64,000 bases of DNA from an uncultured Gemmatimonadota bacterium. GTDB lineage: Bacteria > JAAXHH01. This document shows, piece by piece, positions 10,092 to 41,783 of this stretch. Made by a program: the position numbers and the translations under genes. Below the pieces are notes generated by a model. That model was not told the origin of the DNA and did no database searches. It saw only the letters and a program-made list of their open reading frames with translations. The stretch is from NCBI GenBank assembly GCA_951812955.1, contig OX638340.1, positions 288,001-352,000 of the forward strand, in the 5' to 3' direction. Each line of letters opens with the position of its first letter. Position 1 is the first letter of the stretch.

Positions 10092-10185
10092 TAACTGGAA
10101 GATGGACATTGTCTGGAAGATTGATAGTTAACTGGAAGATGGACAGCGATCTGGAGATTCTGATCGCAGGCGGCCTGGAAGACAT
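10092..10185. promoter_or_regulatory. Cluster of five CTGGA(A)GA(T) motifs including a duplicated 17-mer taactggaagatggaca (10092-10108 and 10129-10145). It lies upstream of the Rieske-fusion operon and is a putative regulator-binding array.
   Basis: The direct repeats were read from the sequence between the polA stop (10080) and the ATG at 10222. Confidence 0.4.
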
Positions 10186-10221: not shown

Positions 10222-12012
10222 ATGAGCTCAGGAAACGGCTGGATCCGGGTCGGAACTACGACCGACATAGCGCCCGGGGAATCCCGCGCCGTTAGAATCA
10301 GCGAGGGCCGCAGCGTTGCCCTCTTCAACGTCAACGGCCGGATACATGCTACCGACAACCAATGTCCCCACATGGGGTTTCCACTGACCCGCGGCGTGGT
10401 GAAGGACGGCATCCTGACGTGCGACTGGCATGGCCGCAGTTTCGATCTGGAAGGCGGCGGCTGCTTCAATTACGAATGCGACGACCTGGAGACGTACCCC
10501 GTCGACATTCGAGGAGATGAACTGTGGGTGCAGGCCGGGGACGCCACCTACAAGCGGCGGGACCAGCACCTGCAACTGCTCTGGGAGGGCCTGCTGAGCG
10601 GGGACTCGTGGACGATTTCGAAGGCCACTGCCCTCCTTCTGTCCGGTGGTGTTTCAGAACACGACATCGTGCAGTTGATCTTGCGCCACCTGGGCCGTCA
10701 CGTCGCGTCGGAACGGGACGCGGGCGGCGGCGGCGATGTCGTTTCACTCCTGGTCTCCGGTCTTGAAGTCGGCAAAAGGTTTGACGGAGAAGACCGGCTG
10801 ATGGCGTTGTCGCTGGCCGGCCGCGCAGCGTCGGGTAGGGCGTCGGAAAGGCTCGAGGTCATTACGCTGCCCCCTCCCGTCCGCTGGGATCAGATAGACG
10901 ACTGGGTACGCATGTTTTCCCGAAACATGCAGGATTTCCGTATCGAACGGTGTTTGCACACGGCCTGCGAGAACGGCCACCAGGACCATATCTTCAAACT
11001 GTTGTTCGAGTGTGCGGTGGCGCCGTACTTCCTCGGATTTTCCCGAAACGTGGCCAGCCTGGGTGATCTCGCAAGGGTGGTGGATACCTTCGGATGGGGC
11101 GAGGCGTCCGAACTGGTCTGCAACCTCGGCGCAAAGATGACGGGCCGAGGGCGCGACGAGCCGGAGCGGTTTCACCGGGATGCCGTCCGGCTGCTCACCG
11201 AACTCGCGCCTGAACTGGAATCACATGATTACGAAGGGAACACGCGCACGGAATACGACGAGAACGCCCTCGTGGACGCCCTGTTGAGCGTCGATATCGA
11301 GCGGTCTTTCGAAGCCGTGACACGGGCCCTGCGGGACGGCGTGGCGATCGAGCGTCTTATCACGACCTTCGTGCTGCTCGCCGCCGACCGCATGGCGCGT
11401 ACGCCCGTGAACGTCGACGCGGGGTGGGGACCGCTGTCCACCGAGTTCAACCTGGCGGCTTCCCTGCGACATGTCCACGCATACGGTGGGCCCGCTGCAG
11501 CGGCGAAGGGCCTGTACCATGCGGCCTGGCAGATTTTCGACAACCGATGGATCAATATCCCCGCACGGTCGCTCGACGAACCCCTTCCCGCCCATCGAAC
11601 GGACACACCGGACGCGGCAGCCGCTTCGGATCTCATTGTCCATTCCATCAAGTCGCTGGATATCCACGGGGTGGGCGATCAGGTGGTGGGTTACCTCAAC
11701 AGCGGATTCGACGGGTCGGACCTGCTCAAGGAAGTGGGACGGGCGATCCTGTGGGACGATACCAACATGGAGCTCCTTCCCACACTGCGCGTCGCGTTCA
11801 ACGAATGGGAAGGTTCAGGGGGTGGCGCAGGCGGCGGAGACGCAAGCGGGGGTGGCGCAGGTGGAAAGGGCCATCCGTCCCGGTATCAGCTCCTGGTGGG
11901 ACTGGTGCGCTACGCCACGGATGTGCGATTGAACAAGAACAGCATGGCCTCCATCAACACGGCCATGCGATTTTCTGAAGGCCGGACGACCGTAGAGGTG
12001 TTCGACGAATAA
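10222..12012 (+). CDS. Rieske [2Fe-2S] domain protein fused to a ~470-aa uncharacterised C-terminal domain (paralog A)
   Basis: It has Rieske ligand motifs CPHMG...CDWHG in the first 100 aa. No signal peptide is present. The C-terminal domain has no motif I recognise. It shares long collinear similarity with the next gene. Confidence 0.8.
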   Translation: MSSGNGWIRVGTTTDIAPGESRAVRISEGRSVALFNVNGRIHATDNQCPHMGFPLTRGVVKDGILTCDWHGRSFDLEGGGCFNYECDDLETYPVDIRGDELWVQAGDATYKRRDQHLQLLWEGLLSGDSWTISKATALLLSGGVSEHDIVQLILRHLGRHVASERDAGGGGDVVSLLVSGLEVGKRFDGEDRLMALSLAGRAASGRASERLEVITLPPPVRWDQIDDWVRMFSRNMQDFRIERCLHTACENGHQDHIFKLLFECAVAPYFLGFSRNVASLGDLARVVDTFGWGEASELVCNLGAKMTGRGRDEPERFHRDAVRLLTELAPELESHDYEGNTRTEYDENALVDALLSVDIERSFEAVTRALRDGVAIERLITTFVLLAADRMARTPVNVDAGWGPLSTEFNLAASLRHVHAYGGPAAAAKGLYHAAWQIFDNRWINIPARSLDEPLPAHRTDTPDAAAASDLIVHSIKSLDIHGVGDQVVGYLNSGFDGSDLLKEVGRAILWDDTNMELLPTLRVAFNEWEGSGGGAGGGDASGGGAGGKGHPSRYQLLVGLVRYATDVRLNKNSMASINTAMRFSEGRTTVEVFDE

Positions 12013-12036
12013 CGAACAACGGAGAGGTAACGGAAT

Positions 12037-13788
12037 ATGTCAACGGAACAAAACGGATTCGTACGGGTGGCGGCAACGGACGAAGTGGTGGACGGCAAGC
12101 CCAAGGCCGTCAAGGTGGAGGGAAGGAGCATCGCCCTCTTCAAGCATAACGGGTCGGTATACGCCACGGACAATCAATGTCCGCACATGGGATACCCGCT
12201 CACGAGAGGGCGCGTTCGCAACGGCGTGCTGACCTGCGACTGGCACGGATGGAGTTACGACCTCGGCGGCGGCGGTTGCTTCACCGGCGGGTGCGATGAC
12301 CTGGAGACCTTTCCGGTCGAGGTGCGAAACGGCGACGTGTTCGTGAACGTAAGCGAAGGCGGATCAAAAAGGTCGGACGCACACTTCCTGCTCTTGAAGG
12401 AAGGACTCTATTCAACGGATCAGTGGACCATCTCGAAGGCCGTGGCCATCATGCTGGCCCGGGGCGTGTCCGAGACGGACACGTTGAACCTCATCATCCG
12501 TCACGGCGGCCGTCACGTCGCGACTGAACGGGGCGCCAACGATGGTGGTGGAGAGGTCTCCGATTTCATCAATGGGATCAAGGTGGCCCGACAGTACGAG
12601 AGCGACGACCGGATCATCCCGTTGACCTTTGCCGCCCACGGGCTATCCGGTCGCGCGGGGGACCGGCCGAGCATCCAGCGGCTGCCCGATCCGATCACCT
12701 GGGAGAAAATCGAGGGATGGATCCGGGTGTTCTCCAAAGACAAGCAATGGGAAGGCATCGAGAAGTGCCTGATCACCGCCCGACGGCTGGGTGGACACGA
12801 TGGCGAGATCCTGCCGCTGCTCTACGAATGCGCCGTAGCCCCGCATTTCCTGGGCAATTCGAACAATTTGCTCAACATCGGCTACATCGCGGAAGTACTC
12901 GAGGAATTCGGCTGGGACGAAGCAGAGGAACTGGTCTGCAACCTCTCGGCCAAGATCCTGGGACAGGAGCGGGGACTGCCCGACGAGATCAGGCAGTCGG
13001 CCATCGACCGGTTCATCGCCGACACCGAAACGCTGGATTCCATCGGCGACAGACCATCTGACGGTTCCGACGCAGCCTTCGACGAAGACGCCTTCGCGGA
13101 GGGTCTGGTCAGCGGCGAAATCGGACCGACCTTCGGCGTGGTTACCCAGGCGCTCAAAGACGGCGTTTCTATCGAGCGCATCGTGACGACCATGGTGGTG
13201 CTCGCGGCGGACCGCATGGCGCGCACGCCGGTTAACATGAACCCGGGATGGGGAGGCCTGGTCCGCGAGATGATGATGGCCAGCGCAATCCGAAAGGCTT
13301 TGAGGTACGGTGGGCACCGAGTCGCCGCCCAGGGTCTGTACCACGTCGCCTGGCAATTCTACGGCGACCGGTGGCTGAATATCACCCATCGTCCGTTGTC
13401 CGAGGCGCGCGGAGACTTGCAGCCGGGCAGCGCGGACGAATCCGAAGCTATCGAAGGCGTCCTTTCTTCCATCGAGCAGATCCAGATCAGGGATATCGGA
13501 AGACAGACCCGGGATTACCTGCGGTCGGGGTACTCGGGCGACGCGTTGCTCCGGGAGCTCGGTCTCGTGATCCTCAAGGACGACAACGGCCGGAACATCC
13601 TGTCCACGCTGCGTACGATCTTCGACGAATGGACCTGGTGCGAAGATCACCCTTCGCGCAACCAGTTGCTGGTCGGCCTCGCACGCTGGGCCACCGACGT
13701 ACGCCGCGCCACGGGAAGCCAGTCCGCCGCCGCGACCGCCCTGCGATTCGCCAAGGGCCAGACCGCGGTGGACCTGTACGAGGCGTAA
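12037..13788 (+). CDS. Rieske [2Fe-2S] domain protein fused to an uncharacterised C-terminal domain (paralog B)
   Basis: It has CPHMGYPLTRG...CDWHGWSYDL motifs and is collinear with paralog A (TISKA, ECAVAP.FLG, LLAADRMARTPVN, HPSR.QLLVGL.R.ATDVR blocks). It starts 25 bp after the stop of paralog A. Confidence 0.8.
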   Translation: MSTEQNGFVRVAATDEVVDGKPKAVKVEGRSIALFKHNGSVYATDNQCPHMGYPLTRGRVRNGVLTCDWHGWSYDLGGGGCFTGGCDDLETFPVEVRNGDVFVNVSEGGSKRSDAHFLLLKEGLYSTDQWTISKAVAIMLARGVSETDTLNLIIRHGGRHVATERGANDGGGEVSDFINGIKVARQYESDDRIIPLTFAAHGLSGRAGDRPSIQRLPDPITWEKIEGWIRVFSKDKQWEGIEKCLITARRLGGHDGEILPLLYECAVAPHFLGNSNNLLNIGYIAEVLEEFGWDEAEELVCNLSAKILGQERGLPDEIRQSAIDRFIADTETLDSIGDRPSDGSDAAFDEDAFAEGLVSGEIGPTFGVVTQALKDGVSIERIVTTMVVLAADRMARTPVNMNPGWGGLVREMMMASAIRKALRYGGHRVAAQGLYHVAWQFYGDRWLNITHRPLSEARGDLQPGSADESEAIEGVLSSIEQIQIRDIGRQTRDYLRSGYSGDALLRELGLVILKDDNGRNILSTLRTIFDEWTWCEDHPSRNQLLVGLARWATDVRRATGSQSAAATALRFAKGQTAVDLYEA

Positions 13789-13814
13789 CATGGGTTGAAT
13801 CGGTTGCGAGGTGA

Positions 13815-15122
13815 ATGGGCATGGACACCGATCATTCTGGCAAGCGTCTTTACGAATGCTATCATCAAGACCCCGACGAGGCCGACCGGATTCTGTTCGG
13901 ACGCCGTACTCACCCGGACCGTCGCGGATTCCTTAAGAACGCGGGCCTGGCGGCCATGGGCGTGCTGGTCGGCGCCGCGATACCCTTTCATCGCAACGTC
14001 CCTGCCCATTTCATTCCGGTCGTGCTCGCCGCAGAGAACACCATTCAGGGCAAGGACGGCCTGACTGTCCTCAACGATCGCCCCATGTGCGCGGAAACGC
14101 CGCCACACCTCCTCGACGACGCCATAACACCCACCGCAAGACACTTCGTCCGCAATAACGGATTGATGCCGGAAGACCTGGACGCATCGCGCTGGAAACT
14201 GGCGATCGACGGACTGGTCGACAGTCCGTTGATACTCACCCTCGAGGATCTTGAAGGCCGGTTCGAGGTCGTCACCCGGGCGTTGACCCTGGAATGCGCG
14301 GGAAACGGCCGGGCATTCTTCGACCCGAAGACGAATGGCGAACAGTGGACCTACGGTGCCGTTGCCTGCTCGGAATGGACGGGAGTGCGGTTTTCCGACG
14401 TACTGACGGCCGCCGGAATGAAGCGCGAAGCCGTCTACACCGCGCACTACGGCGCCGATACCCACCTGTCCGGTGTGGAGGCCGGACTTCCCATCTCCCG
14501 CGGCGTACCGATCGAAAAGGCCATGGATGGACACAGCCTCATCGCCTTCGCACAGAACGGGCGGCCGATCCACCCGACGAACGGCGGCCCATTGCGGCTG
14601 ATCATACCGGGATGGCCCGGGTCTTGTTCCCAGAAATGGTTGACCCGCATTGAGATTCGGGACCAGGTACACGACGGACCCAAGATGACCGGCTCGTCCT
14701 ATCGGTTGCCGAGTCGAAGGATCGAACCCGGCGAGGCCGTGGACGAAAAAGACTTCCAAATCATAGAAAGCATGCCGGTAAAGTCGCTCATCACCCACCC
14801 GGCGACGGGGCACAGATCGAATGACAGATCAGTGGAAGTACGGGGACATGCGTGGACGGGTGAGGGACGCGTCACCGCGGTTGATCTTTCGATCGACTTC
14901 GGGTCAACCTGGAAGCGTGCGTCGCTGGAGGAACCGGTCAACGCCTTCGCCTGGCAGAACTGGCGCGCTTCGTTCTCGTTTCCACAGGCGGGGTATTACG
15001 AGGTTTGGGCGAGAGCCACCGACTCTCTGGGCGTCAGCCAGCCCCACGCCATCGCGTGGAATCCGGGTGGCTACCTAAACAACGCCATGCACCGCGTCGC
15101 GGTGTACGTGGAATCTGAATAG
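13815..15122 (+). CDS. Sulfite oxidase-family molybdopterin oxidoreductase (Oxidored_molyb plus Mo-co dimerisation domains) with a Tat signal peptide
   Basis: It has a twin-arginine motif RRGFLKNAGLAAMGVLVGAA and the conserved Mo-ligand cysteine in LTLECAGNGR. It is 435 aa, typical SorA/SO size. It starts 27 bp after paralog B. Confidence 0.8.
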   Translation: MGMDTDHSGKRLYECYHQDPDEADRILFGRRTHPDRRGFLKNAGLAAMGVLVGAAIPFHRNVPAHFIPVVLAAENTIQGKDGLTVLNDRPMCAETPPHLLDDAITPTARHFVRNNGLMPEDLDASRWKLAIDGLVDSPLILTLEDLEGRFEVVTRALTLECAGNGRAFFDPKTNGEQWTYGAVACSEWTGVRFSDVLTAAGMKREAVYTAHYGADTHLSGVEAGLPISRGVPIEKAMDGHSLIAFAQNGRPIHPTNGGPLRLIIPGWPGSCSQKWLTRIEIRDQVHDGPKMTGSSYRLPSRRIEPGEAVDEKDFQIIESMPVKSLITHPATGHRSNDRSVEVRGHAWTGEGRVTAVDLSIDFGSTWKRASLEEPVNAFAWQNWRASFSFPQAGYYEVWARATDSLGVSQPHAIAWNPGGYLNNAMHRVAVYVESE

Positions 15123-15208
15123 ACCTGAACGATTCCTACCAATTCGAAAATGCCTTTGTAGTTACGACTATTCAATAAAGGGATTTGGATAGAAGCATTG
15201 AGTTACTA

Positions 15209-15238
15209 TTGACAATGTATCAATTTTGATACACATTG
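15209..15238 (+). promoter_or_regulatory. Putative promoter/operator of the toxin-antitoxin pair: TTGACA followed by an imperfect inverted repeat caatgtatca-N-tgatacacattg
   Basis: It lies in an AT-rich stretch immediately upstream of ATG 15249. Palindromic operators are typical for HigA/XRE antitoxins. Confidence 0.35.
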
Positions 15239-15248
15239 AAACTACGAC

Positions 15249-15593
15249 ATGCACATATTGCGCGTCGTTTTTTACACGACTAAAACAGGTCGCGAACCGG
15301 TTCGTGACTGGATGGCGTCTCTAACCCGTGACGAAAAGAAGATTGTAGGAGTGGATTTAAAAACAGTCCAGTTCGGCTGGCCTTTGGGCATGCCACAAGT
15401 GCGCAAACTGGATCGTGGGATTTGGGAAGTAAGGTCAGCACTTAAAGGGCGCATAGCACGAGTGCTGTTCACAGTTCAAGGTAACAGCATCGTTTTATTA
15501 CACGGGTTCATCAAGAAGGTTCGTAAGACGCCCTATCAGGATCTACGTCTCGCAAAAACACGATTGGCTACGTTGGGAGATACGTCAGGATGA
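15249..15593 (+). CDS. Type II toxin, RelE/ParE superfamily (gp49-like / HigB-like addiction-module killer protein)
   Basis: 114 aa. It has the motif pattern ...WEVRS..KGRIARVLFTVQGNSIVLLHGFIKK..KTPYQDLRLAKTRL typical of gp49/HigB-like toxins. Local GC is low. It overlaps the next gene by 4 bp. Confidence 0.7.
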   Translation: MHILRVVFYTTKTGREPVRDWMASLTRDEKKIVGVDLKTVQFGWPLGMPQVRKLDRGIWEVRSALKGRIARVLFTVQGNSIVLLHGFIKKVRKTPYQDLRLAKTRLATLGDTSG

Positions 15594-15877
15594 CTTCGGA
15601 TGACCGTCACATTGGAAGCGACTTCGATCTATACCTGAAGGAAGAAGGACTGATTGTAGAAGTTGAAAGAGTCGCGATAAAGCGTGCAGTCGCCTATCAA
15701 GTAGCTCAATTCATGTTGAATCAAGGTCTGAGCAAGACAGAAATGGCCCGGCGCATGCGCACAAGTCGCGCCTCACTGGATCGTCTTCTTGATCCTAACA
15801 ATGGATCTGTCACACTGCAAACCCTGGAACGGGCGGCCGATGCACTGGGACGGCGCTTGCATATCTCGCTGGTTTGA
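15590..15877 (+). CDS. HTH (XRE-family) antitoxin, HigA-like
   Basis: 95 aa with a helix-turn-helix segment (LSKTEMARRMRTSRASLDRLL). It is translationally coupled to the upstream toxin. Confidence 0.65.
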   Translation: MTSDDRHIGSDFDLYLKEEGLIVEVERVAIKRAVAYQVAQFMLNQGLSKTEMARRMRTSRASLDRLLDPNNGSVTLQTLERAADALGRRLHISLV

Positions 15878-15984
15878 ACGTGACCTCGAAGGACTTCTGT
15901 AACGCAGTACTGATCTAGTTCACCATCCTGCGAGTACTCAATGTTGTGATCGTCAAATCACTGTGGACGGTTAGTCTCGCCTAC

Positions 15985-16839
15985 CTACACGCTATCCACC
16001 GCGGGGCGCGGCAGATCGGCCCAATGGCCGGTGGGATCGGATCCCTTGACGATCACGCCTTCCTTGTTCCAGTTCAGTTCGGCGCGGACGGAAGCGGCGC
16101 AGAACCTGAGCGTCAGGCCGCAGCGGCGGCGGTCCGACGTGTTGAGTCCCGATCCGTGCAATAGCAGGTCGCTGTGGAGCGAGATCTCTCCCGCCTCAAG
16201 CTCGATATCTACCTCGGTCCCGAACATCCCCACGTCTTCCACGGTCTGGTTGAGCACGTTGTTCTCGGCTTCCTCGCTCAGGTGGTAGGTCAGGTGCCCG
16301 TGGTGATGGGATCCCGCCACGAAGCGCATGCAGGCGTTGCCCGTGTCCGCATCGTCGATGGCCAGCCAGGCGGTCACCGTTTTCGACGGCGAGAGGGGCC
16401 AGAAACTGGCGTCCTGGTGCCAGTTGACGATCTTGCCGTCACCGGGAAGCTTGCAGAAGAAATGGGCGCCCCAGCCCACGACGTCGTCGCCCAGGAGGTC
16501 GCTGATGTAGGCGACGATCCGTGGCTCGTTCATGATATCGTGGACCATGCCCGATTTCAGGTGGGCCGATATGATGGAGTAATTGTGGTCCCCCCGCGCC
16601 ATGACTTTTTCGATCATGCCGTCGAATTCATTCCGTATGTCGCCGATCTCCCCATCCGAGTAGATCCTGAACGGCTTCAAGTAGCCTTGCTCATTGAACG
16701 TGTCGATCTGCGTGCTAGATAACACGGCCGGATGCTCGTTGCGTACCGGGTGGTACTGCAGGTCGCGGGACATGCGGACCAGGTCTTCCGGGGTAGGCAT
16801 CTGCTTGAAACGGGTGTCCTGCAGGGTCGTCTGCGCCAT
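15985..16839 (-). CDS. Phytanoyl-CoA dioxygenase (PhyH) family Fe(II)/2-oxoglutarate oxygenase
   Basis: 284 aa with the HxD iron motif in WHQDASFWP and a PhyH-like C-terminal region (GSHHHGHL). Confidence 0.8.
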   Translation of the reverse strand: MAQTTLQDTRFKQMPTPEDLVRMSRDLQYHPVRNEHPAVLSSTQIDTFNEQGYLKPFRIYSDGEIGDIRNEFDGMIEKVMARGDHNYSIISAHLKSGMVHDIMNEPRIVAYISDLLGDDVVGWGAHFFCKLPGDGKIVNWHQDASFWPLSPSKTVTAWLAIDDADTGNACMRFVAGSHHHGHLTYHLSEEAENNVLNQTVEDVGMFGTEVDIELEAGEISLHSDLLLHGSGLNTSDRRRCGLTLRFCAASVRAELNWNKEGVIVKGSDPTGHWADLPRPAVDSV

Positions 16840-16878: not shown

Positions 16879-18057
16879 TCAGCCCTCGTTTTTTGTCTTC
16901 AGTATGACGTTCTCGGATTCCCTTTCCCATGTTTCGTTGTAGACCAGTGGCCTCGGTCTGCGCGGCGGGTAATCCGGAGGGGGATTATCCGGGTCGTTCA
17001 GCTCCAGGCGGTCGCGGCCCCGGGGCGCTTCGTACCAGTGTTTTTCCCGTTCGGCCGCTTCAATCTCCCTTCGGAGGATGAACTCCGCGTGATCGAAACC
17101 GGAGATCGCCGCGTCCGCCAGAAACACGCGGTGCACCTCGCGGCCGTCCCAGGTTTCCAGGTCCGGCAGGATCACGGGGCCCGTGCAGACCTGAAACTCG
17201 GCGTCTTCTTCGTTAATATTGATCAGATCCACAGGAAACTCAAGGGTAACCTGCATGTTCCGGTCCGCCCGGTCCGCCCGGTCCGCCTGGTCCGCCTGGC
17301 CAGCTTGGACTGTTTGGCTCGCCTGGCCTGCTTGACCCGTTTGACCCGTTTGACCCGCTAGGCCCGGCTGGTCCGGATCATGACAGACAGTCCAGGCGAT
17401 CCTGCCATTCATGAGATCCCGGTTGATCGTCGCGTCCACGACAGCCCGCGCGTCCGTCAGGGTTTCCTCGGAATCATACTGCCTGATATCGATTTCGTGG
17501 GCCTGGAATTGTTTTTCAAGCGGAGTACCCCTGTATTCGGCGGCCTCGTTACTCGGTCTTCGCGATATAGGGATGCTCTGACTTCGGCTAAACGCCATGC
17601 GCCATTCGTCGCTGGGAATCTGAAAGAGGTTTCGGCGGGCGATCGTGTATTCCGTGCGACACGGAGCGCCCAGGTAAATTTCGGTACGGTGTCCCGAGTC
17701 CAGGTCTTCCACGGTACAGGCCGCCTCGAGGTGGAACCGCACCTGGTAGGCCTGTCCCGGCACCCCGACAAAACCGCCCGTATACTTGTAGACCGGATCG
17801 GGTTTCCAGGGCGAGGATTTCCAGTGGAAAGAAGAGCGATGGAAAGCGATCATGGGCCTGGTCTTCGGCTTGGTCTTTGTGGCATTCGCATACCGGGCCA
17901 TCCGGGCTTGAAATGTGCTTCTCTCATTTGTACCGATTTGATGCGGCAATGTCCCAAAATGACCTATTCTACCCATGCAGGCAATACAAAACTGCGTTTC
18001 CGCCCTGCGGACCGCGACCGTGATTTTTGTTGCGAGCGTGGGGTCCGCAGGATACAT
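16879..18057 (-). CDS. Hypothetical protein with a central low-complexity Q/G/A/D/R linker encoded by 9-bp tandem repeats
   Basis: 392-aa ORF. The linker PGLAGQTGQTGQAGQASQTVQAGQADQADRADRADR is encoded by cggtccgcc x4 and ttgacccgt x3 at 17261-17358. It lies 40 bp upstream of the PhyH gene on the same strand. The N-terminal start is uncertain. Confidence 0.5.
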   Translation of the reverse strand: MYPADPTLATKITVAVRRAETQFCIACMGRIGHFGTLPHQIGTNERSTFQARMARYANATKTKPKTRPMIAFHRSSFHWKSSPWKPDPVYKYTGGFVGVPGQAYQVRFHLEAACTVEDLDSGHRTEIYLGAPCRTEYTIARRNLFQIPSDEWRMAFSRSQSIPISRRPSNEAAEYRGTPLEKQFQAHEIDIRQYDSEETLTDARAVVDATINRDLMNGRIAWTVCHDPDQPGLAGQTGQTGQAGQASQTVQAGQADQADRADRADRNMQVTLEFPVDLININEEDAEFQVCTGPVILPDLETWDGREVHRVFLADAAISGFDHAEFILRREIEAAEREKHWYEAPRGRDRLELNDPDNPPPDYPPRRPRPLVYNETWERESENVILKTKNEG

Positions 18058-23483: not shown

Positions 23484-24359
23484 ATGGCCTGGTTTGAAAG
23501 AAGACAGCGGGGTTTAAACCCGCAGAAGCGCAAGGAAATCCCGAAGGGGTTATGGGTAAAGTGCGACAAGTGCGACGCCATGCTGTACAAGGCGGAGCTC
23601 GAACGGGACTTCAATGTGTGCACCCAGTGCGGGTTTCATTTCAAGATCGGCCATCAGGCGTATATCTCCCTGATCATGGACACGGACACCTTCGAGGAGA
23701 CCGACACGGATCTGCGCACCGTCGATCCGCTCGAGTTCAAGGAGAAGGAGAACTACCCGGACTACATGAAGCGGTACCAGAAAAGGACGGGCATGAGGGA
23801 GGCCGTGGTGTCGGGCACCGGCCGCATCGACGGAAGGCTCGTATCCCTGTCCATCCACGACGGTTCCTTCCTGGCCGGGAGCATGGGGTCCGTGGTCGGC
23901 GAGAAAGTGACGCGATCCATCAGAAGGTCGCTCGACCTGGAGATACCGCTGCTTGTGGTCGCCACTTCGGGGGGAGCCCGCATGCAGGAAGGCATCCTCT
24001 CCCTCATGCAGATGGCGAAGACTTCCCTCTGGCTGAACCGCCTGTCGGAGGAGAAGATCCCTTTTGTTGTCGTGATTACGAATCCGACCATGGCCGGCGT
24101 GATGGCGAGTTATGCATCGCTGGGAGACTTTACCCTGGCCGAGCCGGGCGCCATGATGGGCTTCGCCGGTGGAAGGGTGATCGAACAGACCATAGGGTCG
24201 AGTCTGCCGGAAGGATTCCAGACCGCCGAGTTTTTCCTGACCAAAGGTTTCGTGGACCAGGTCGTACCCAGGACCAGTTTGCGGGAGAAGCTGGTCACGA
24301 TCCTGGGTTTTTTCCCGGATCGGGAGAAGAAGGAAGCACAGGCAAAAGAAGCGCCTTGA
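23484..24359 (+). CDS. accD: Acetyl-CoA carboxylase carboxyltransferase beta subunit
   Basis: It has an N-terminal zinc ribbon (CDKCDAMLY...CTQCGFH) and a carboxyltransferase domain. Confidence 0.9.
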   Translation: MAWFERRQRGLNPQKRKEIPKGLWVKCDKCDAMLYKAELERDFNVCTQCGFHFKIGHQAYISLIMDTDTFEETDTDLRTVDPLEFKEKENYPDYMKRYQKRTGMREAVVSGTGRIDGRLVSLSIHDGSFLAGSMGSVVGEKVTRSIRRSLDLEIPLLVVATSGGARMQEGILSLMQMAKTSLWLNRLSEEKIPFVVVITNPTMAGVMASYASLGDFTLAEPGAMMGFAGGRVIEQTIGSSLPEGFQTAEFFLTKGFVDQVVPRTSLREKLVTILGFFPDREKKEAQAKEAP

Positions 24360-24480
24360 TGTGCCTGCCGCCAAGCAGGATGGCCCTGCCCTGTCGCCCT
24401 GTCATGAGCGGTACGATGTGGTACCGTCCCTGGACCAGTGCGCCTCTGGCGGGCTCCCAGCCTCAGGCAGCTCGCAGGCG

Positions 24481-25890
24481 CTACGATTCCAGCATGAGCT
24501 TGTTAAGTGAATCTTCGGGGACGACCGGGTAGTCTCCGCTGAAGCAGGCCGTACAATACCCCGTCCCTGACTTGCCGTATTCCTTCGCGATTTTTACCAT
24601 GCCCTCGATGGACAGGTAACCCAGGCTGTCCGCACCCAGGTATGTGCGAATCTCATCCACCCGGGTCTGCGAAGCGATGAGCTCGCCCCGGCTCTGCATG
24701 TCGATCCCGTAATAGCACGGGTGGCGGATGGGAGGACTGCTGATCCGTACGTGTACCTCGGAGGCGCCCGCGCTGCGGATGAGTCTTACCAGCTGATTGA
24801 GCGTCGTGCCCCGCACGATGGAATCGTCCACGAGGACCACCCGCCGGTTTCGCAACACGCCCTGGACCGGGTTGTACTTCAGTCTCACCGTGAACTCCCG
24901 CATGGACTGGTCCGGGTCGATAAATGACCTTCCCACGTAGTGATTCCTGATCAGGCCGATTTCGAACCGGATTCCCGAATGCTCTGAGTAGCCCAGCGCG
25001 GCTGTCGTGGCGGAATCGGGCACGGCGATGACGATATCGGCGTTCACGGGGTGCTCCTCCGCCAGCCGGCGGCCGAAACGCCGGCGGAACTTGTCGCTGT
25101 TTTCCCCGAAAACCTTGCTGTCGGGCCGGGCGAAATAAATGTATTCGAAGATGCAGGAGGCAGGTACCGCGCGATCGAAGGGAAAGTAGGACTGGATTCC
25201 GTTCTCGTCGATGACGACCATTTCTCCCGGGTTCACTTCCCTGACGTACTCCGCGTTCATGATGTCGAAGGCGCAGGTTTCCGAAGCGAGCACGTGGGCA
25301 TCCCCGATGCGTCCCAGGCATAGCGGGCGGAATCCGCGGGGATCCCGGACGCCAATGAGTTGCTTCCCGGACAGGAATACGATGGAATAGGCGCCTTCGA
25401 CGTGGCGTAAGGCGTCGGAGATCATGCCGGGCAGATCGGATTCGTTCGATCGCGCGATGAGATGAAGGACGATCTCGCTGTCGGACGAGGTGCGGAAAAT
25501 CGATCCGGACTCTTCCATCGACAGGTGGAGCGCGCCGGTATTGGTAAAATTACCGTTGTGAGCGGTGGCCAACTGTCCGCGCTTGAAGTTGACCATGAAT
25601 GGCTGTGCGTTGTCTACGTTGGATGTGCCGGTGGTGGAATACCGGTTGTGGCCGATGGCGATATGGCCATCAAGATCGGCCACGCGATCGCCGTGCTCAT
25701 AGGCTTCGCTGACCAGTCCCATGGCGCGGTGAGAATCGATATGTTCGCCGTCGGAGACGGCCATGCCGGAGCTTTCCTGGCCGCGGTGCTGGAGGGCGTA
25801 CAGGCCCAGAAAGGTCAGCTTGGCGGCGGCCGGGTCGCCATAAATGCCGAAGACACCGCACTCCTCGCGAATTTCGTCGTCTTCCCACAT
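24481..25890 (-). CDS. purF: Amidophosphoribosyltransferase
   Basis: It has an N-terminal CGVFGIYG glutamine amidotransferase motif and a PRTase domain. Confidence 0.95.
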   Translation of the reverse strand: MWEDDEIREECGVFGIYGDPAAAKLTFLGLYALQHRGQESSGMAVSDGEHIDSHRAMGLVSEAYEHGDRVADLDGHIAIGHNRYSTTGTSNVDNAQPFMVNFKRGQLATAHNGNFTNTGALHLSMEESGSIFRTSSDSEIVLHLIARSNESDLPGMISDALRHVEGAYSIVFLSGKQLIGVRDPRGFRPLCLGRIGDAHVLASETCAFDIMNAEYVREVNPGEMVVIDENGIQSYFPFDRAVPASCIFEYIYFARPDSKVFGENSDKFRRRFGRRLAEEHPVNADIVIAVPDSATTAALGYSEHSGIRFEIGLIRNHYVGRSFIDPDQSMREFTVRLKYNPVQGVLRNRRVVLVDDSIVRGTTLNQLVRLIRSAGASEVHVRISSPPIRHPCYYGIDMQSRGELIASQTRVDEIRTYLGADSLGYLSIEGMVKIAKEYGKSGTGYCTACFSGDYPVVPEDSLNKLMLES

Positions 25891-26085
25891 TGGCTCGCCC
25901 CGGTTGTGTTTTCAAGAAACCCACCGACATTATACGCGCCGGCCACCACAATGTCCACCGCAATTTCACAGAATCGCCGTACTTTGTAACCGGGCCATTT
26001 TCGTTGACACCGCGGGTAGCGAAACCTACATTGCACGTGGTTGAAATCCACTGAGTAGACCCACTTTTTCAAGGAGAATCAGTCT

Positions 26086-26547
26086 GTGGAACGAACGCTT
26101 GTCCTCATCAAGCCGGATGCCGTGCAGCGCGGGATGATTGGCCTCGTCACCGGACGTTTCGAAAGCAAGGGGCTCAAGGTCGCCGGTCTCAAGATGATGC
26201 AGCTGACCGATGGGATACTGAACGAGCACTACGGGCACCTGTCCGACAAGCCCTTTTTCCCCCGAATCAAGTCCTTCATGCAGGAAACGCCGGTAGTGGC
26301 AATGTGTCTTGAAGGCGTCGATGCCGTGGACGTCGTGCGGGGCCTTTGCGGCGTGACGAACGCGCGGCAGGCCTCCCCGGGCACGATCAGAGGCGATTTC
26401 GGCATGAGCGTGCAGTGCAACCTGGTGCACGCTTCCGATTCCCTGGAGACGGCGCGGGCCGAAGTACCCCGTTTCTTTTCCGACGCCGAGCTGTTCACCT
26501 ACGCGAAGGCGGATGACACTGTCGTCTACGCCGACGATGAGCGGTAG
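26086..26547 (+). CDS. ndk: Nucleoside diphosphate kinase
   Basis: It starts at GTG: MERTLVLIKPDAVQRG... with an active-site His region. AAGGAGA lies 14 nt upstream. Confidence 0.9.
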   Translation: MERTLVLIKPDAVQRGMIGLVTGRFESKGLKVAGLKMMQLTDGILNEHYGHLSDKPFFPRIKSFMQETPVVAMCLEGVDAVDVVRGLCGVTNARQASPGTIRGDFGMSVQCNLVHASDSLETARAEVPRFFSDAELFTYAKADDTVVYADDER

Positions 26548-26568
26548 TCGGCCCCACCCCGGCCAGGC

Positions 26569-28785
26569 ATGGACATTCTCACCGGTACCATCGAACGCAT
26601 CACCTACCAGAGCGAGGAGACCGGCTACACGGTCGCGCGAATGCGCGCCGAACCGGACGCCTGCCGGACTACCGAGAACCTGGCCCGCGCATCCACGCGG
26701 GACGGACTGCTGACCATAACGGGCGAACTTGCGAAAATGGCGCCCGGCGAACGCGTCGAAGTCGCCGGATACTGGGTAACCCACAAGCAGTACGGCAAGC
26801 AGTTCAAGATCGTAGATTCCAAGACGATCCAGCCCACTTCCGCGGACGGCATACGCAAGTACCTGGGTTCGGGGCTCATCAAGGGACTCGGGCCGGCCAA
26901 GGCCGCGATGATCGTCGATCATTTCGGCGAAGACACCCTCACGGTCATCGAAAAGACGCCGAACCGGCTGTCCGAAGTCAAGGGCATCGCGCGGAAGACC
27001 ATCGCCGTAATCAGATCCGGCTGGGAGGAACAGAAGCACATCCAGGAGGTCATGCAGTTTCTGATCGGTCATAACGTCAGCATGGCCTACGCGGTGAAAA
27101 TCTACAAGACCTACGGTAACGAGGCCATCAGGCAAGTCACGGAGAATCCTTACCGCCTGTCCACGGACATCTGGGGCATCGGTTTCAAGACCGCCGACAA
27201 GATCGCCATGAACCTGGGAGTCGATCCCGGAGACCCCGCCCGGGTCCAGGCCGGCATCAGGTATGTCCTGGAGACCCAGGCCGATGACGGTCATGTCTAC
27301 GTGCCCTTCGAAGCGCTCGTGGAGGAGTGCATCGGTTTTCTGGACGTGGATCCCGCCGCCATTCCGACCGGTCTTGAAGCCCTGGTCAAGGCCGAGGTCG
27401 TCCTTCGCGATGACGACCGGGTTTATCTCCAGCCTCTCTATTACGCCGAGCAGGGGATAGCGCGGAATATCGCCCGCCTGGCCGATCATCGGCGCACCCC
27501 GCCGTCCACCGGACGAATCGACGAACACATCGGGCATATAGAAAAGGAACGGGGCATCGTCTTCAACAGGGAACAGCGCGAGGCGATCCACACTTCTGCT
27601 TCTCAGAGCGTCCTGGCGATAACCGGAGGGCCCGGAACCGGCAAGACCACCTGCGTGCAGGGCATTGTCTACCTGTTCACGCGCGTGGGCGGAAAAGTGT
27701 TGCTCGCGGCGCCGACCGGCCGTGCCGCGAAACGGCTGTCCGAAGTGACCGGCGCCGAAGCAAAGACCATCCACCGGCTGCTCGAGTTCAACCCGGGCGT
27801 CATGGAATTCGGCCGCGACCAGGATAACCGGCTGGAAGCCGACCTGGTCATCCTGGACGAGTCCTCCATGGTGGATACGGTCCTGATGAACGCCCTGCTT
27901 CGGGCCGTGAAGACCTCCGCCCGCTTCATCATGGTCGGCGACGTCGACCAGTTGCCTTCGGTGGGCGCGGGCAACGTCCTCCGGGATATGATCGACGCCG
28001 GCCATGTACCAGTGGTCCGACTGACCGAGATCTTTCGCCAGGCCCTGGAAAGCAGCATCGTGATGAATGCGCACCGGGTAAACCGGGGCGAAATGCCCGA
28101 CACGAAGAACAGGAACGAGGGCGATTTCTTTTTCATCAACGAACCCGACCCGTCGGCCGGCGCGGATCGGATCGCCGAACTGTGCACGGATCGCCTGCCC
28201 CGAAGCTACGGACTCGATCCCTTCAACGATATCCAGGTGATCACCCCCATGTACCGCGGGGATATCGGCGTGGATCAACTCAACCTGAAGCTGCAGCAGG
28301 TGCTGAATCCGTCGGGGTCCTCCCTGCAGCGGGGCGACCGGGAACTGCGCGAAGGCGACAAGGTCCTGCAGACGCGGAACAATTACGGGAAAATGACCTT
28401 CAACGGCGATATCGGCCGCATCAGGCAGATCGACCCGGATGCCCAGACCGTGGACATCTCCTTCCAAGATACCGTCCGGTACGACTATGGCGAACTGGAC
28501 GAACTGATCCTGGCTTACGCCATCAGCGTCCACAAAAGCCAGGGATCCGAGTATCCGGCCATCATCCTGCCGCTCTACAGCACCCACTACATCATGCTGC
28601 AGCGAAACCTGCTGTATACCGCGCTGACCCGGGCCAGGGCGCTGGCCGTCATCATCGGGACGCCCAAGGCCCTTGCCATCGCGGTGAAGAACAACCAGGT
28701 CGTCGAGCGCTACACGGGTCTCCGGGAAGCGCTGGGCGCATCGATTGGCGACCGGACCGGGGTCCTTCCGGACCTTTCGCCATGA
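26569..28785 (+). CDS. recD2: RecD2-like SF1 ATP-dependent DNA helicase
   Basis: 738 aa with Walker A GGPGTGKTT and helicase motifs, plus an N-terminal extension typical of RecD2. Confidence 0.85.
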   Translation: MDILTGTIERITYQSEETGYTVARMRAEPDACRTTENLARASTRDGLLTITGELAKMAPGERVEVAGYWVTHKQYGKQFKIVDSKTIQPTSADGIRKYLGSGLIKGLGPAKAAMIVDHFGEDTLTVIEKTPNRLSEVKGIARKTIAVIRSGWEEQKHIQEVMQFLIGHNVSMAYAVKIYKTYGNEAIRQVTENPYRLSTDIWGIGFKTADKIAMNLGVDPGDPARVQAGIRYVLETQADDGHVYVPFEALVEECIGFLDVDPAAIPTGLEALVKAEVVLRDDDRVYLQPLYYAEQGIARNIARLADHRRTPPSTGRIDEHIGHIEKERGIVFNREQREAIHTSASQSVLAITGGPGTGKTTCVQGIVYLFTRVGGKVLLAAPTGRAAKRLSEVTGAEAKTIHRLLEFNPGVMEFGRDQDNRLEADLVILDESSMVDTVLMNALLRAVKTSARFIMVGDVDQLPSVGAGNVLRDMIDAGHVPVVRLTEIFRQALESSIVMNAHRVNRGEMPDTKNRNEGDFFFINEPDPSAGADRIAELCTDRLPRSYGLDPFNDIQVITPMYRGDIGVDQLNLKLQQVLNPSGSSLQRGDRELREGDKVLQTRNNYGKMTFNGDIGRIRQIDPDAQTVDISFQDTVRYDYGELDELILAYAISVHKSQGSEYPAIILPLYSTHYIMLQRNLLYTALTRARALAVIIGTPKALAIAVKNNQVVERYTGLREALGASIGDRTGVLPDLSP

Positions 28786-28968
28786 GATTCGGGAAAGGAA
28801 ATACACCTTGACAGTGATAAGTGGGGTCCTATCTTGTCTGACTTGGTATCCGACCATGCATGACCCTACGAGTTTTAAATAGATAACTGCCAATGCATAT
28901 AATTAGTATCTAGTTGGCGTACAGGGTGTTACAGGAATCAACCGCTGTATCCCTTCAGGGGGTGTCCG

Positions 28969-30993
28969 GTGTCGGTGCGTGAAGAGGAAATGAAGGAAGA
29001 CAGTCCGGAACAGTATCGGAATGCCGATACCGCGTTGTTCGGAGAATCGGACGAACCCTACCTTTCAGGATTCAACCTGAAGACGATCTGGGCGTGCCTG
29101 TTCGTCGGTTTCGTCATGTTGCCGGGATCGATCTACCTGAGCCTGGTGACGGGCGGGCAGACTGGCGCGGCGGACTGGGTTACCGTCATCCTGTTCCTCG
29201 AGATCGCCAAACGGTCCCTCGTCAAGATGACCCGGCAGGAAATCATGATCCTGTACTGGGCCGCGGCCGGACTGGCCGCCGCGGGGAACGCGATGAACAC
29301 CGGCATCACCGGCGGTCCCTTCGCCCACCTGATCTGGGAGCAGTACTACCTGCAGTCTCCGGAAGCCACGGGCATCGCCACGCTGATCCCCACCTGGGTC
29401 GTCCCGACGCTGGATTCCGGGGCGCTGGCGAGCCGGACGTTCTTCCACATGGACTGGTTCGTGCCCGTCCTCGTCCTCACCGCGGTGACCGTCCTCTTCG
29501 CGGTCAATTCCTATTCGATGGGGTACATCCTCTTCCGGGTTACCAACGACGTGGAGAGGCTGACCTTCCCCCTGGCGAGGGTGCACGCGGGCGGCGCAAC
29601 GGCGCTGGCCGAGACTTCGCAGAACAAGGAGGGCTGGCGATGGCGGGCATTCAGCATCGGATCCGTAATCGGGGTGTCCTGGGGACTCCTGTACGTGATG
29701 ATACCCATCCTGTCCAGCACGTTCCTGGTCACGCCCATCACCATATTGCCCATCCCCTTCATCGATTTCACCACCAGTCTCAAGGAAGTGTTGCCCGCGA
29801 CCATGGTGGGCATCGGGACCGATCTCGGCACCCTCGTCGCGGGATTCGTCCTGCCCTTCTGGGTCGTGATCGGCACCTTCGTGTCGTCGGCCGTAATCGC
29901 TTTCGTCGCCAATCCCCTGCTCTATCACAACGGCATCCTGACCACCTGGGAACCCGGGATGTCGCTCATTCCGACCCAGATATCCAACAACATCGATTTC
30001 TGGCTCAGCTTCACCATCGGCGCTTCCCTCGTCATCGGCATCGTGGGATTCACGGCGACCATCCGGGCCATTCTGAAATCCAACCGGGAGAAGCGTAACG
30101 ATTCCGACGGGGACACGGGGGTGCGTCCGACGCCGGAGGGCCGGGGCGACCTGCCGATCTGGCTCGTATTCATCTTCTGGTTCATCAGCACGACGGGATT
30201 CGTGGTCATACTCTACTTTCTGATCCCCGACTTTCCGTGGTGGATCAGCGCCATCTTCGGATACCTCTGGTCGCCGGTGTTTTCCTATATCGGGGCCCGG
30301 ATGATCGGCATCACCGGCTCACCCTACGGTTCCTCCTTCCCCTTCGTCAAGGAAGCATCCTTCCTGCTGTCCGGCTACAAGGGGGTCGCCGTGTGGTTCG
30401 CGCCGATACCCATCTTCGAACACGGAAAGGTGGCGGAAACCTTCAAGCAGCTGGATCTCACCAAGACGACCTTCGGCAGCGTGGTCAAGTTAACCGCGGT
30501 GACCACCATCCTGATGTTCGTTTGCAGCTTCATCTTCTACTCGCTCGTGTGGAAACTTAATCCGATCCCGTCGGCAGCCTATCCCTTTGTGCAGAAGATG
30601 TGGCCCCTCAACGCGGCCATGCGGACCATCTGGGTGAAGTCCACCCTGCCCGGCGGCATCACGTTCATCTTCGATATCATCAAGATCGAGTACATCATCG
30701 CCGGTCTGGGCGTAACGGGCGGGCTGTTCGGTCTGCTCACGCTCGTGGGCGCCTCGCCGCTTTTCTTCTACGGCCTGGTTGGCGGCCTGGCCATGCCGCT
30801 CTGGCAGACCCTGCCGACCTTCTTCGGCGCCATCCTTGGGCGCTACTACTTCTCCAAGCGCTTCGGCGAAGAGAATTGGATGGCCTATGTGCCCATTGTT
30901 CTGGCCGGCTACGGGGCCGGCATCGGACTCATAGGCATGATCGCCATCGCCATCGCGCTGATATCCAAGGCGATTTCGCAAATCGTGTACTGA
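28969..30993 (+). CDS. Polytopic membrane protein, OPT-family oligopeptide transporter-like
   Basis: 674 aa with more than 14 predicted hydrophobic segments. The size and architecture are compatible with the OPT family. No motif was confirmed. Confidence 0.45.
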   Translation: MSVREEEMKEDSPEQYRNADTALFGESDEPYLSGFNLKTIWACLFVGFVMLPGSIYLSLVTGGQTGAADWVTVILFLEIAKRSLVKMTRQEIMILYWAAAGLAAAGNAMNTGITGGPFAHLIWEQYYLQSPEATGIATLIPTWVVPTLDSGALASRTFFHMDWFVPVLVLTAVTVLFAVNSYSMGYILFRVTNDVERLTFPLARVHAGGATALAETSQNKEGWRWRAFSIGSVIGVSWGLLYVMIPILSSTFLVTPITILPIPFIDFTTSLKEVLPATMVGIGTDLGTLVAGFVLPFWVVIGTFVSSAVIAFVANPLLYHNGILTTWEPGMSLIPTQISNNIDFWLSFTIGASLVIGIVGFTATIRAILKSNREKRNDSDGDTGVRPTPEGRGDLPIWLVFIFWFISTTGFVVILYFLIPDFPWWISAIFGYLWSPVFSYIGARMIGITGSPYGSSFPFVKEASFLLSGYKGVAVWFAPIPIFEHGKVAETFKQLDLTKTTFGSVVKLTAVTTILMFVCSFIFYSLVWKLNPIPSAAYPFVQKMWPLNAAMRTIWVKSTLPGGITFIFDIIKIEYIIAGLGVTGGLFGLLTLVGASPLFFYGLVGGLAMPLWQTLPTFFGAILGRYYFSKRFGEENWMAYVPIVLAGYGAGIGLIGMIAIAIALISKAISQIVY

Positions 30994-40376: not shown

Positions 40377-41783
40377 ATGGCTAAATCACGCCGGCGAAGG
40401 AAGAAGCGTCCCAATATCGTATTGCTGGGCGTGGATTCCCTTCTGGCCGATCACATGAGCTGTTACGGATACCATCGGCACACAACGCCCCATATCGACC
40501 GGTTCGCCGAGGGCGGCGCGCTGTTCGAGAAGACGTACAGCGCCCATATCCCCACGACAAGCGCCTATGCCTCCATGCTGACCGGCCTGGACGCCTTTGG
40601 CACCCAGGTAGTAGCCCTGCGTCACAAGGGCGGACTCCGGGAGGACGTGCAGACGCTGCCCGAGATCCTGCGGGAGCACGGATATGCGTCCACCTGCGTG
40701 GGTTTTGGGGGAAACCCGTCCTCGCGAGGTTTCGACAAGTACATCGAGTATCCGAGCTGGGGCAGCTGGAACGAGGGGCGCAGTCCCAAGGCGCAGAATC
40801 TGAACGACGTGGCGATTCCGGAGCTGGACCGGCTGGCCAAACGGCGCGGACCTTTCTTCCTTTTTCTGCGCCACATGGATCCTCATGCGCCGTACCTGCC
40901 GCCGGAACCCTACGAACGCATGTTCTATCACGGCGACGAGTGCGATCCGAAAAACAAGTCCATGGATCCCGTCAAGGCGTTCAAACCCTTCTGTGATTTC
41001 TTCGCCGCGTGGATGCCGCCCGACATCACCGACAAAGACTACGTCATAGCCCAGTACGACGGCGCCGTCGCGTACATGGACGCCTGTATCCAGACCATCT
41101 TCAACGCCCTGGAAGCCCACGGTATCATGGACGAAACGATCGTGATCCTCAACGGGGACCACGGCGAGACCCTTTACGACCACGAATGCTGGTTCGATCA
41201 CCACGGACTCTACGATGTGACGCTCCACGTGCCGCTCATCATCCGGTATCCTGGCAGGATCCCCGGGGGTAGCCGCATCAGCGGGTACAACCAGCACAAG
41301 GATCTCGTACCCACCATCATGGATTTGGCCGAAATCGATGCGGAGATCGACTACGACGGGGACAGCCTGATGGCGCTGGTCGACGGCACGGTTTCCTCCT
41401 TCGACAGCGAGTTCTATATCACCGAGTGCACGTGGATGCGCAAGCACGGCTGGCGGACGCCGCAGTGGAAGCTGATGGTCGCCCTCGAGCCGGATTTCCA
41501 CTTCAAGCCGCCGGTCGAGCTGTACAACCTGGTGGAGGACCCGGACGAGAACCGGAACCTGGCCGATGAGCTGCCGGAAGTGGTCAACCTGCTCAAGCGG
41601 CGGATGAACAACTGGATACGGAAACGGGTGAAAGAGACCGGAAAGCGTAATCCCATGCTTACCCAGGGGGACTGGCATGGGCACGAGGGCGTGGGTGCCT
41701 TCAAGACATCGCAGCAGGCCTACGACACGATGCACATCGGCGACCCCAATCAGGCCGCCAGTCTGCAGGCGCGCAGCAGGTAG
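40377..41783 (+). CDS. Sulfatase-fold (alkaline phosphatase superfamily) hydrolase lacking the CxPxR formylglycine motif
   Basis: It has a sulfatase-like N-terminus (PNIVLLGVDSL...TPHIDRFAEGG) and an NGDHGE block. At the nucleophile position it has PTTSAY instead of CTPSR. Confidence 0.7.
   Translation: MAKSRRRRKKRPNIVLLGVDSLLADHMSCYGYHRHTTPHIDRFAEGGALFEKTYSAHIPTTSAYASMLTGLDAFGTQVVALRHKGGLREDVQTLPEILREHGYASTCVGFGGNPSSRGFDKYIEYPSWGSWNEGRSPKAQNLNDVAIPELDRLAKRRGPFFLFLRHMDPHAPYLPPEPYERMFYHGDECDPKNKSMDPVKAFKPFCDFFAAWMPPDITDKDYVIAQYDGAVAYMDACIQTIFNALEAHGIMDETIVILNGDHGETLYDHECWFDHHGLYDVTLHVPLIIRYPGRIPGGSRISGYNQHKDLVPTIMDLAEIDAEIDYDGDSLMALVDGTVSSFDSEFYITECTWMRKHGWRTPQWKLMVALEPDFHFKPPVELYNLVEDPDENRNLADELPEVVNLLKRRMNNWIRKRVKETGKRNPMLTQGDWHGHEGVGAFKTSQQAYDTMHIGDPNQAASLQARSR

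Follow-up and report, generated by a model that had tools for sequence, protein, structure and literature searches.

Rieske non-heme iron oxygenases, such as the naphthalene, carbazole and phthalate dioxygenases, KshA and SxtT, carry an N-terminal low-potential Rieske [2Fe-2S] domain followed by a larger C-terminal catalytic domain. The classical catalytic domain has a mixed alpha/beta fold with a 2-His-1-carboxylate iron site, and in the oligomers the active site of a subunit receives its electrons from the Rieske centre of the adjacent subunit. To our knowledge, Rieske oxygenases have so far been defined by this one catalytic-domain fold. Here we analyse a 64 kb stretch of DNA from an uncultured Gemmatimonadota bacterium (the whole stretch is hereafter called the window), where two adjacent paralogous genes, designated A and B, each encode a Rieske domain fused to a large all-alpha domain. 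They are followed by a gene (gene 3) for a molybdoenzyme of the sulfite oxidase (SO) family, the locus extending over positions 10222-15122. The A-B pair represents an uncharacterised conserved two-gene family, in which a Rieske domain is fused to an all-alpha domain resembling those of BTG13 and PaD. We found no match for it in the literature, where searches for Rieske proteins in connection with DUF4243, BTG13, GedK, Poribacteria or sulfite oxidase returned no relevant work.

BTG13, GedK and PaD (DUF4243, PF14027; structures 7Y3W and 8Z4Q) are atypical non-heme-iron dioxygenases, which cleave hydroquinone or anthraquinone rings and possess a 4-His-1-carboxylysine site (PMC12173810, PMC11371914). 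They were recognised as a separate class of iron dioxygenases only in 2022-2024, in natural-product pathways, and their named members are mostly from fungal pathways of this kind (PMC12173810, PMC11371914). PaD has an all-alpha fold of 22 helices (PMC11371914), and its iron is bound by H63, H166, H317, H394 and the carboxylated K397 (PMC12173810, PMC11371914). A fusion with a Rieske domain, as present in A and B, is not mentioned in the literature that we searched.

The Rieske fusion proteins A and B

Gene A (10222..12012, forward strand) and gene B (12037..13788, forward strand) are open reading frames (ORFs) of 596 and 583 amino acids (aa), respectively. Gene 3 (13815..15122, forward strand) is an ORF of 435 aa, which is reduced to 433 aa in public gene calls by a start two codons downstream. 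Since full-length homologues exist in hundreds for each of the three, we regard them all as real genes. The earlier note on this DNA described A and B as paralogs, each with an N-terminal Rieske domain, a further domain of about 450 aa and no signal peptide. This description stands, the second domain measuring about 480 aa: A and B align from end to end (46% identity, E = 0), and their N-termini open at the first Rieske strand. Two other window ORFs of similar size were considered as additional paralogs and rejected, the one at 52501-54261 encoding an SBP_bac_5 protein and the one at 58883-60634 lacking a Rieske domain.

The Rieske domain of A is encoded at 10240..10536 (forward strand; residues about 7-105; Pfam PF00355, E = 1e-16) and that of B at 12058..12351 (forward strand; residues about 8-105; PF00355, E = 2e-20). 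Both exhibit the CxH...CxxH ligand pattern within the cluster boxes CPHMG(Y/F) and CDWHG(W/R), the ligands in A being C48, H50, C67 and H70. In 33 non-redundant A and 28 non-redundant B sequences, the ligands and two further cysteines, C81 and C86, are at least 95% conserved. The best PDB matches of the B domain, both by sequence and by fold, are Rieske ferredoxins of dioxygenase systems. BphF, T4moC, the naphthalene dioxygenase (NDO) ferredoxin and NirD are the best matches found for the Rieske domain; AioB and b6f proteins match weakly. High-potential Rieske proteins of the bc1/b6f and AioB type possess a second cysteine pair, forming a disulfide near the cluster, and a membrane anchor or a twin-arginine (Tat) signal. 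Neither a second cysteine pair within the cluster boxes nor a Tat signal was found in A or B. Judged by these sequence features, the two Rieske domains are of the low-potential ferredoxin/oxygenase type and fall outside the high-potential group. The analogy drawn in the earlier note with arsenite oxidase (AioAB), where a Rieske protein gene similarly stands beside a molybdoenzyme gene, breaks down on the same features.

The known Rieske ferredoxins (BphF/BphA3, T4moC, NDO ferredoxin, CarAc) and NirD are free-standing proteins of about 100-110 aa. In contrast, the A and B domains are fused to a 480-aa domain and carry an extra conserved CxxxxC pair. This pair (C81/C86 in the sequence GGGCFxxxCDD; residues 81-86 of both proteins, window 10462-10479 and 12277-12294) is located in a low-confidence loop of the Rieske domain, and could provide a second metal site or a disulfide at the domain interface.

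The remaining part of each protein, encoded at 10552..12009 in gene A (residues 111-596) and at 12367..13785 in gene B (residues 111-583; both on the forward strand), belongs to no sequence family. This domain of about 480 aa had no match in Pfam, NCBIfam or PDB sequences (phmmer), and profiles built from the whole superfamily or from its C-terminal half found no family for it either. The only weak match, with RFC domain III (E about 0.85), was dismissed as a local helical resemblance. The domain thus remained undescribed after HMM searches of the kind called for in the earlier note, made here with Pfam, NCBIfam and PDB profiles, which gave no characterised family. The note was also right in finding no sign of the catalytic domain of Rieske oxygenases: no catalytic-domain family was detected in A or B at E ≤ 1, nor in 30 relatives at E ≤ 10. 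The NCBIfam oxygenase equivalogs match only the Rieske part, with scores far under their cut-offs. Thus, A and B share with Rieske oxygenases an N-terminal low-potential Rieske domain and a larger C-terminal domain, but the latter is all-alpha and matches none of the catalytic-domain families, which places the two proteins outside the alpha subunits of Rieske oxygenases.

An AlphaFold2 model of B (predicted local distance difference test [pLDDT] 86, predicted template modelling score [pTM] 0.84) exhibits a Rieske beta domain followed by an all-alpha domain of 22 predicted helices, the same number as in PaD. With the full-length model, Foldseek against the PDB gave only Rieske matches among the best 50. 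In a fold search against 48,164 chains, BTG13 and PaD alone gave alignments of about 300 residues, for A as well as for B. In terms of the predicted structures, the domain has the all-alpha fold of BTG13 and PaD, and the resemblance is specific and reproducible. The sequence identity in these alignments is only 7-9%, which would also suit a convergent helical packing: the alpha domain would then be a non-catalytic scaffold (e.g. for the handling or storage of Fe-S clusters or metals), leaving the Rieske cluster as the sole cofactor site. That BTG13 and PaD are the sole aligners of this length, with A as with B, makes this rather improbable. Also against it, conserved His, Cys, Glu, Arg and Trp residues are dense in the domain, which suggests a binding or active site.

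The superfamily defined by the alpha domain is small. An exhaustive HMMER search recovered only 232 cluster representatives at 50% identity. They divide into the clade of A and B, two distant clades that also carry the Rieske fusion (18-28% identity) and a clade lacking the Rieske domain. The Rieske-less alpha domain also occurs in fusion with WD40 repeats (P0190) or with a 3-keto-disaccharide-hydrolase-like domain (P0200). A glycine-rich low-complexity insert, GSGGGAGGGDASGGGAGGKG, is found at residues about 531-550 of A (window 11812-11871), just before a conserved HPxR motif. Only paralog A of the clade to which the window belongs has this insert, and the model confidence is very low there.

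Conservation of the pair and its association with gene 3

We identified 833 homologues of B, many of which cover its full length with about 65% identity; they occur in Poribacteria, Acidobacteriota and metagenome-assembled genomes (MAGs) labelled Latescibacterota or Gemmatimonadota. In public databases they are named only 'Rieske (2Fe-2S) protein' or 'nitrite reductase/ring-hydroxylating ferredoxin subunit'. From 294 species-level genome loci containing a relative of B, 80 were sampled, together with four metagenome loci; all window genes were mapped onto the sampled loci and all neighbouring ORFs were clustered. Gene A is located upstream of B on the same strand in 75 of the 80 loci. Among the five exceptions, three end within about 600 nucleotides (nt) upstream of B and two contain a partial A. 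The pair is also present in L001, L002 and L004. Orthologues from other phyla exhibit 52-59% identity to A and 58-66% identity to B, against only 46% between A and B. The duplication must therefore have preceded the spread of the genes through Poribacteria, Acidobacteriota and the clade of the window. The A-B tandem pair, already recognised as a tandem duplication in the earlier note, is ancient and obligate. The two genes are separated by more than 1 kb (up to 6 kb) in 15 loci, typically by ankyrin-repeat genes in Poribacteria. In one Poribacteria group (L062, L065, L068-L071, L076, L080, L083 and others), the intervening ankyrin-repeat genes encode about 420 and about 188 aa; A and B remain co-directional there but are no longer contiguous.

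No partner is conserved with the pair. Neither a reductase, nor a cytochrome, nor a molybdoenzyme recurs beside it in the 80 genome loci, the four metagenome loci and four contexts of the distant clades, and the neighbours have no common theme over five or more types of context. One Poribacteria group has a ModABC-like transporter, a PhyH gene and an ATP-sulfurylase upstream, and two small lipoprotein-like genes downstream. Another Poribacteria context consists of ankyrin, WD40-like and MORN-like repeat genes, assigned by reading their sequences, and a further context contains genes resembling a formylglycine-generating enzyme and a glycosyltransferase. In Acidobacteriota the neighbours are transketolase-like, alpha/beta-hydrolase-like and peptidase-like genes. 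PhyH was considered as a conserved partner and rejected, since the Poribacteria PhyH is unrelated to that of the window, whose type recurs instead with SO genes.

Gene 3 contains an Oxidored_molyb domain (E = 5e-50), a Mo-co_dimer domain (E = 2e-20) and a twin-arginine signal (TIGR01409, score 18.1 against a cut-off of 16.7). Its closest relative of solved structure is SorA (2blf, E = 5e-48), with which its ECAGNGR cysteine block aligns at QCSGNSR. The Arg of FVR and the Tyr of YR(I/L)P, which we take to be active-site residues of SorA, are aligned as well. Profile scores and the SorA alignment thus bear out the earlier assignment of a Tat-exported SO-family enzyme with a Mo-ligand cysteine, and gene 3 exhibits the two domains, the cysteine ligand and the Tat signal of the SorA/SorT type, as in SorAB and SorT-SorU. 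Unlike these, it scores under the NCBIfam equivalog cut-offs (SorA, 231 against 600; SoxC, 220 against 420; SorT, 198 against 570). Gene 3 is, by its sequence, a SorA/SorT-like catalytic subunit of sulfite dehydrogenase, a member of the very large SO family but not a named equivalog. Orthologues of gene 3 with 71% identity occur without the Rieske pair in other bacteria (L089, L090), where the gene for a small secreted protein bearing the heme-c motif CGACH follows 30 nt 3' of them (L089:7326-7709, L090:7326-7676). This small protein is probably a SorB/SorU-like electron acceptor, in the arrangement of SorAB and SorT-SorU. No CxxCH ORF was found in the window, no homologue of the L089/L090 cytochrome was found in the window or in the loci of its clade, and gene 3 has no adjacent c-type cytochrome gene in either. 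Most simply, gene 3 would be a periplasmic sulfite dehydrogenase using a c-type cytochrome encoded elsewhere in the lineage. Another orthologue (L091/L092) adjoins DapF and a PhyH (L092:8359-9117, in an unrelated genome) with 38% identity to the PhyH of the window (15985-16839, reverse strand). These PhyH proteins belong to another subfamily than the Poribacteria PhyH, and an SO-PhyH association is possible.

The window belongs to a clade of sponge symbionts, defined here by loci whose B is at least 85% identical (n = 21); the closest genomes in public databases are MAGs from sponges, labelled Gemmatimonadota or Latescibacterota. The neighbourhood is syntenic in this clade, with the order amidohydrolase-polA-A-B-SO-toxin/antitoxin-PhyH-orf392-E1. 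The SO gene is found in 18 of the 21 loci, but only 10 of these have it within 200 nt of B; 1.2-5 kb are inserted between B and SO in eight (L007, L011, L012, L013, L014, L017, L023 and L049). No SO gene was found within 10 kb in two others (L019, L022). In the closest relative of the window (L005, OY762445.1), the SO gene (11779-13074) exhibits a frameshift after about residue 222 and has its Mo-ligand cysteine replaced by tyrosine (LEYAGNGR). At the DNA level it is 91.9% identical to its window counterpart, with gaps, whereas A, B, PhyH and E1 reach 98.4%, 97.4%, 97.4% and 98.0%, respectively; it would be either a decaying pseudogene or in part an assembly error. Beyond the clade, all 51 loci with sufficient flank lack an SO-family gene over about 10 kb around the pair. 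The junction between B and SO is an insertion hotspot in the clade (about locus positions 11750-16300), and the inserted genes, unrelated to the pair and in part of mobile or defence type, encode, from reading of their sequences, Sel1-repeat, Fic and DUF262-like proteins, a DNA methylase with a restriction-like protein, and an IS256-type transposase.

These observations bear directly on the central proposal of the earlier note, in which A, B and gene 3 constitute one redox system, the Rieske fusion proteins exchanging electrons with the periplasmic molybdoenzyme or hitch-hiking on its Tat signal. The arrangement in the window favours such a system. The three genes are co-directional and close-set as had been noted, with gaps that measure 24 nt (A-B) and 26 nt (B-gene 3) rather than 25 and 27 bp, a Shine-Dalgarno-like GGAG/GAGG stands immediately 5' of B and of gene 3 in each gap, and no terminator-like site was found between A, B and gene 3. 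The lack of a cytochrome gene near gene 3 in the window also speaks for it. However, the gap from the 3' end of polA to gene A is likewise no more than about 20-35 nt in relatives, and the tight spacing between B and SO, being typical of the region, is thus uninformative. The survey of gene neighbourhoods proposed by the earlier note turned out against the triplet: A and B stay together while the SO gene is confined to the clade of the window, where it is displaced in eight loci, missing in two and pseudogene-like in one. A and B lack a signal peptide in every lineage, and most lineages have no nearby SO on which they could hitch-hike. The SO orthologues elsewhere pair with cytochrome c. The three-gene system is therefore largely refuted by the lack of co-conservation, an outcome that the earlier note had itself named as counting against it, and we consider it highly improbable. 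Gene 3 stands beside the pair through lineage-specific synteny, and very probably is not an integral part of the A/B system. This negative result removes a tempting wrong inference, namely a Rieske partner for an SO-family enzyme, and illustrates that, in this compact region, closely spaced genes are no evidence of a functional operon.

A 17-nt motif, TAACTGGAAGATGGACA, occurs in three direct copies, spaced by 18-19 nt, between polA and gene A (10092-10145). Their interpretation as a conserved regulatory site was rejected, as the triple repeat is present only in the window and in its 99% relative L005. Other members of the clade do not have it, and there polA nearly abuts gene A.

A looser link through sulfur metabolism can be conceived, in which an A/B oxygenase would free sulfite from an organosulfur compound and the neighbouring SO would detoxify it in this lineage. 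Genes for sulfur or molybdenum metabolism are indeed found near the pair in separate lineages, with SO here, the ATP-sulfurylase and the ModABC-like transporter in one Poribacteria group, and the formylglycine-generating (sulfatase-maturing) enzyme-like gene in another group. Since none of these associations extends beyond one closely related group, they reflect synteny rather than independent recurrence. The Acidobacteriota and other contexts are without sulfur genes, and the SO gene has been lost or has decayed where A and B were kept. Furthermore, sulfite produced in the cytoplasm would need an exporter, and none was noted among the recurrent neighbours. We consider a sulfur link of this kind improbable.

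Possible function of the A-B pair

Several residues of the alpha domain are candidates for a metal or substrate site. In B numbering, H116, K134, H156, E242, C244, C265, D392, R393 and W405 are conserved in both paralogs, as are E411, H436, W439, R445, W446 and H538. R541 is retained in most of the clade-1 sequences tabulated. Exactly four histidines (H116, H156, H436 and H538) and K134 are at least 95% conserved in both paralogs within the A/B clade, and they are found among numerous other conserved residues (Arg, Trp, Glu, Asp and Cys). The H538-P-x-R541 motif resembles H394-x-x-K397 of PaD. The spacings in H160...C265...H436...H538 are near those of the PaD ligands if the two variable loops of low confidence (about 337-349 and about 444-467) are left out of the count; this comparison is position arithmetic, not a superposition, and is a lead only.

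Taken together, we favour an explanation in which A and B are a self-contained two-gene module of cytoplasmic proteins, combining a Rieske domain with a BTG13-like domain and independent of gene 3 as an ordinary sulfite dehydrogenase. As a whole, we would give this explanation slightly less than an even chance. That A and B act together is likely. Their obligate co-occurrence and paralog-specific residues lead us to infer a heteromer. Both paralogs retain all Rieske ligands and all the conserved polar residues, and they differ reciprocally in charge at some positions (R316 in A for E317 in B; R240 in A for E239 in B), which would fit a complementary A-B interface. In the proposed hetero-oligomer, a donor encoded elsewhere would reduce the Rieske cluster. 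Single electrons would then go from the cluster to a site in the alpha domain that holds a metal or the substrate; by analogy with the classical Rieske oxygenases, this transfer may take place between subunits. The product of the pair would then be an oxygenase or oxidoreductase of new architecture, carrying out the O2-dependent oxidation of a small molecule. An oxygenase with a second metal site is, for the present, a tentative suggestion, which we think may well prove wrong.

Several results weigh against this explanation. PF14027 (DUF4243) was not matched at E ≤ 10 in any of 30 superfamily members, and neither 7y3w nor 8z4q was recovered in two PDB profile searches. By sequence, the A/B pair stands outside DUF4243, with no detectable relationship to BTG13 and PaD, from which it also differs in being an obligate pair of paralogs. 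The residue at position i+3 after H538, the last His, is Arg in place of the Lys of PaD, which makes a carboxy-lysine site at this position unlikely. Conservation of the four histidines does not extend to the wider superfamily, whose only universal residues are E242, R393 and W405. The mapping of A/B residues onto the PaD ligands gives candidates only. No reductase or other electron donor is encoded near A-B in any lineage examined. As for the independence of gene 3, its 26-nt gap with no terminator-like site makes co-transcription with A and B possible in this genome. Finally, some distant members of the superfamily (about 21-25% identity) suggest a role in sensing: one is fused to an ECF sigma factor (P0220, Sigma70_r2/r4), and a distant module of Rieske and alpha domains is fused to a class III nucleotide cyclase (P0224, Guanylate_cyc).

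According to these fusions, A and B could be sensors of redox state or of a small molecule, the Rieske cluster reporting redox or O2 status and the alpha domain relaying it to partners. One distant member adjoins two-component genes, the pair has no linked donor gene, and the invariants shared throughout the superfamily are unlike a metal site. However, the fusions are single cases and belong to a different clade, without C81/C86 and without the histidines of the A/B clade. Apart from the A/B clade, the C81/C86 pair is kept in one distant clade, which likewise retains a His at the position of H160; the distant clade containing the sensor fusions does not have the pair. A and B themselves have no output domain, and no regulator is linked to them in the 80 loci. 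Their high identity across phyla (about 65%), dozens of invariant polar residues and obligate pairing of paralogs are more typical of an enzyme. We therefore regard a sensor as unlikely, if less so than the scaffold considered above.

Returning to the proposed enzyme, the A/B heteromer might found a new class of Rieske-dependent oxygenases, in which a BTG13-like all-alpha metal domain replaces the classical catalytic domain. This must be considered doubtful at present. BTG13 and PaD, as dioxygenases, should need no external electron donor. If the proposal is true, a fold known only from cofactor-independent ring-cleaving dioxygenases would have been converted to serve a mono-oxygenase or oxidoreductase that is reduced from outside. 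Such an enzyme would be widespread both in soil Acidobacteriota and in sponge symbionts, the latter comprising Poribacteria and MAGs labelled Latescibacterota or Gemmatimonadota. A conserved bacterial pair of Rieske and BTG13-like domains would connect the fields of Rieske oxygenases and of BTG13/DUF4243 enzymes, and would point to O2-dependent chemistry of a new kind among soil bacteria and sponge symbionts that are abundant but uncultured. About 300 species-level genomes would gain a testable annotation instead of 'Rieske (2Fe-2S) protein'.

Further features of the window

Several long ORFs of the window (326-955 aa) have no Pfam match at E ≤ 1e-4: 26026-28893 (reverse strand), 28969-30993 (forward), 58883-60634 (reverse), 40386-41825 (reverse) and 23552-24532 (forward). 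Some of them may not be real genes. Downstream of the locus, a Gp49 (HigB-like) toxin and a helix-turn-helix (HTH) antitoxin are encoded between SO and PhyH (15249-15877), and are present in only some members of the clade. An ORF of 392 aa at 16879-18057 (reverse strand), with no Pfam match, contains a short low-complexity repeat of the GQTGQ/ADQAD type. It is located next to PhyH throughout the clade, and the length of its repeat differs between genomes.

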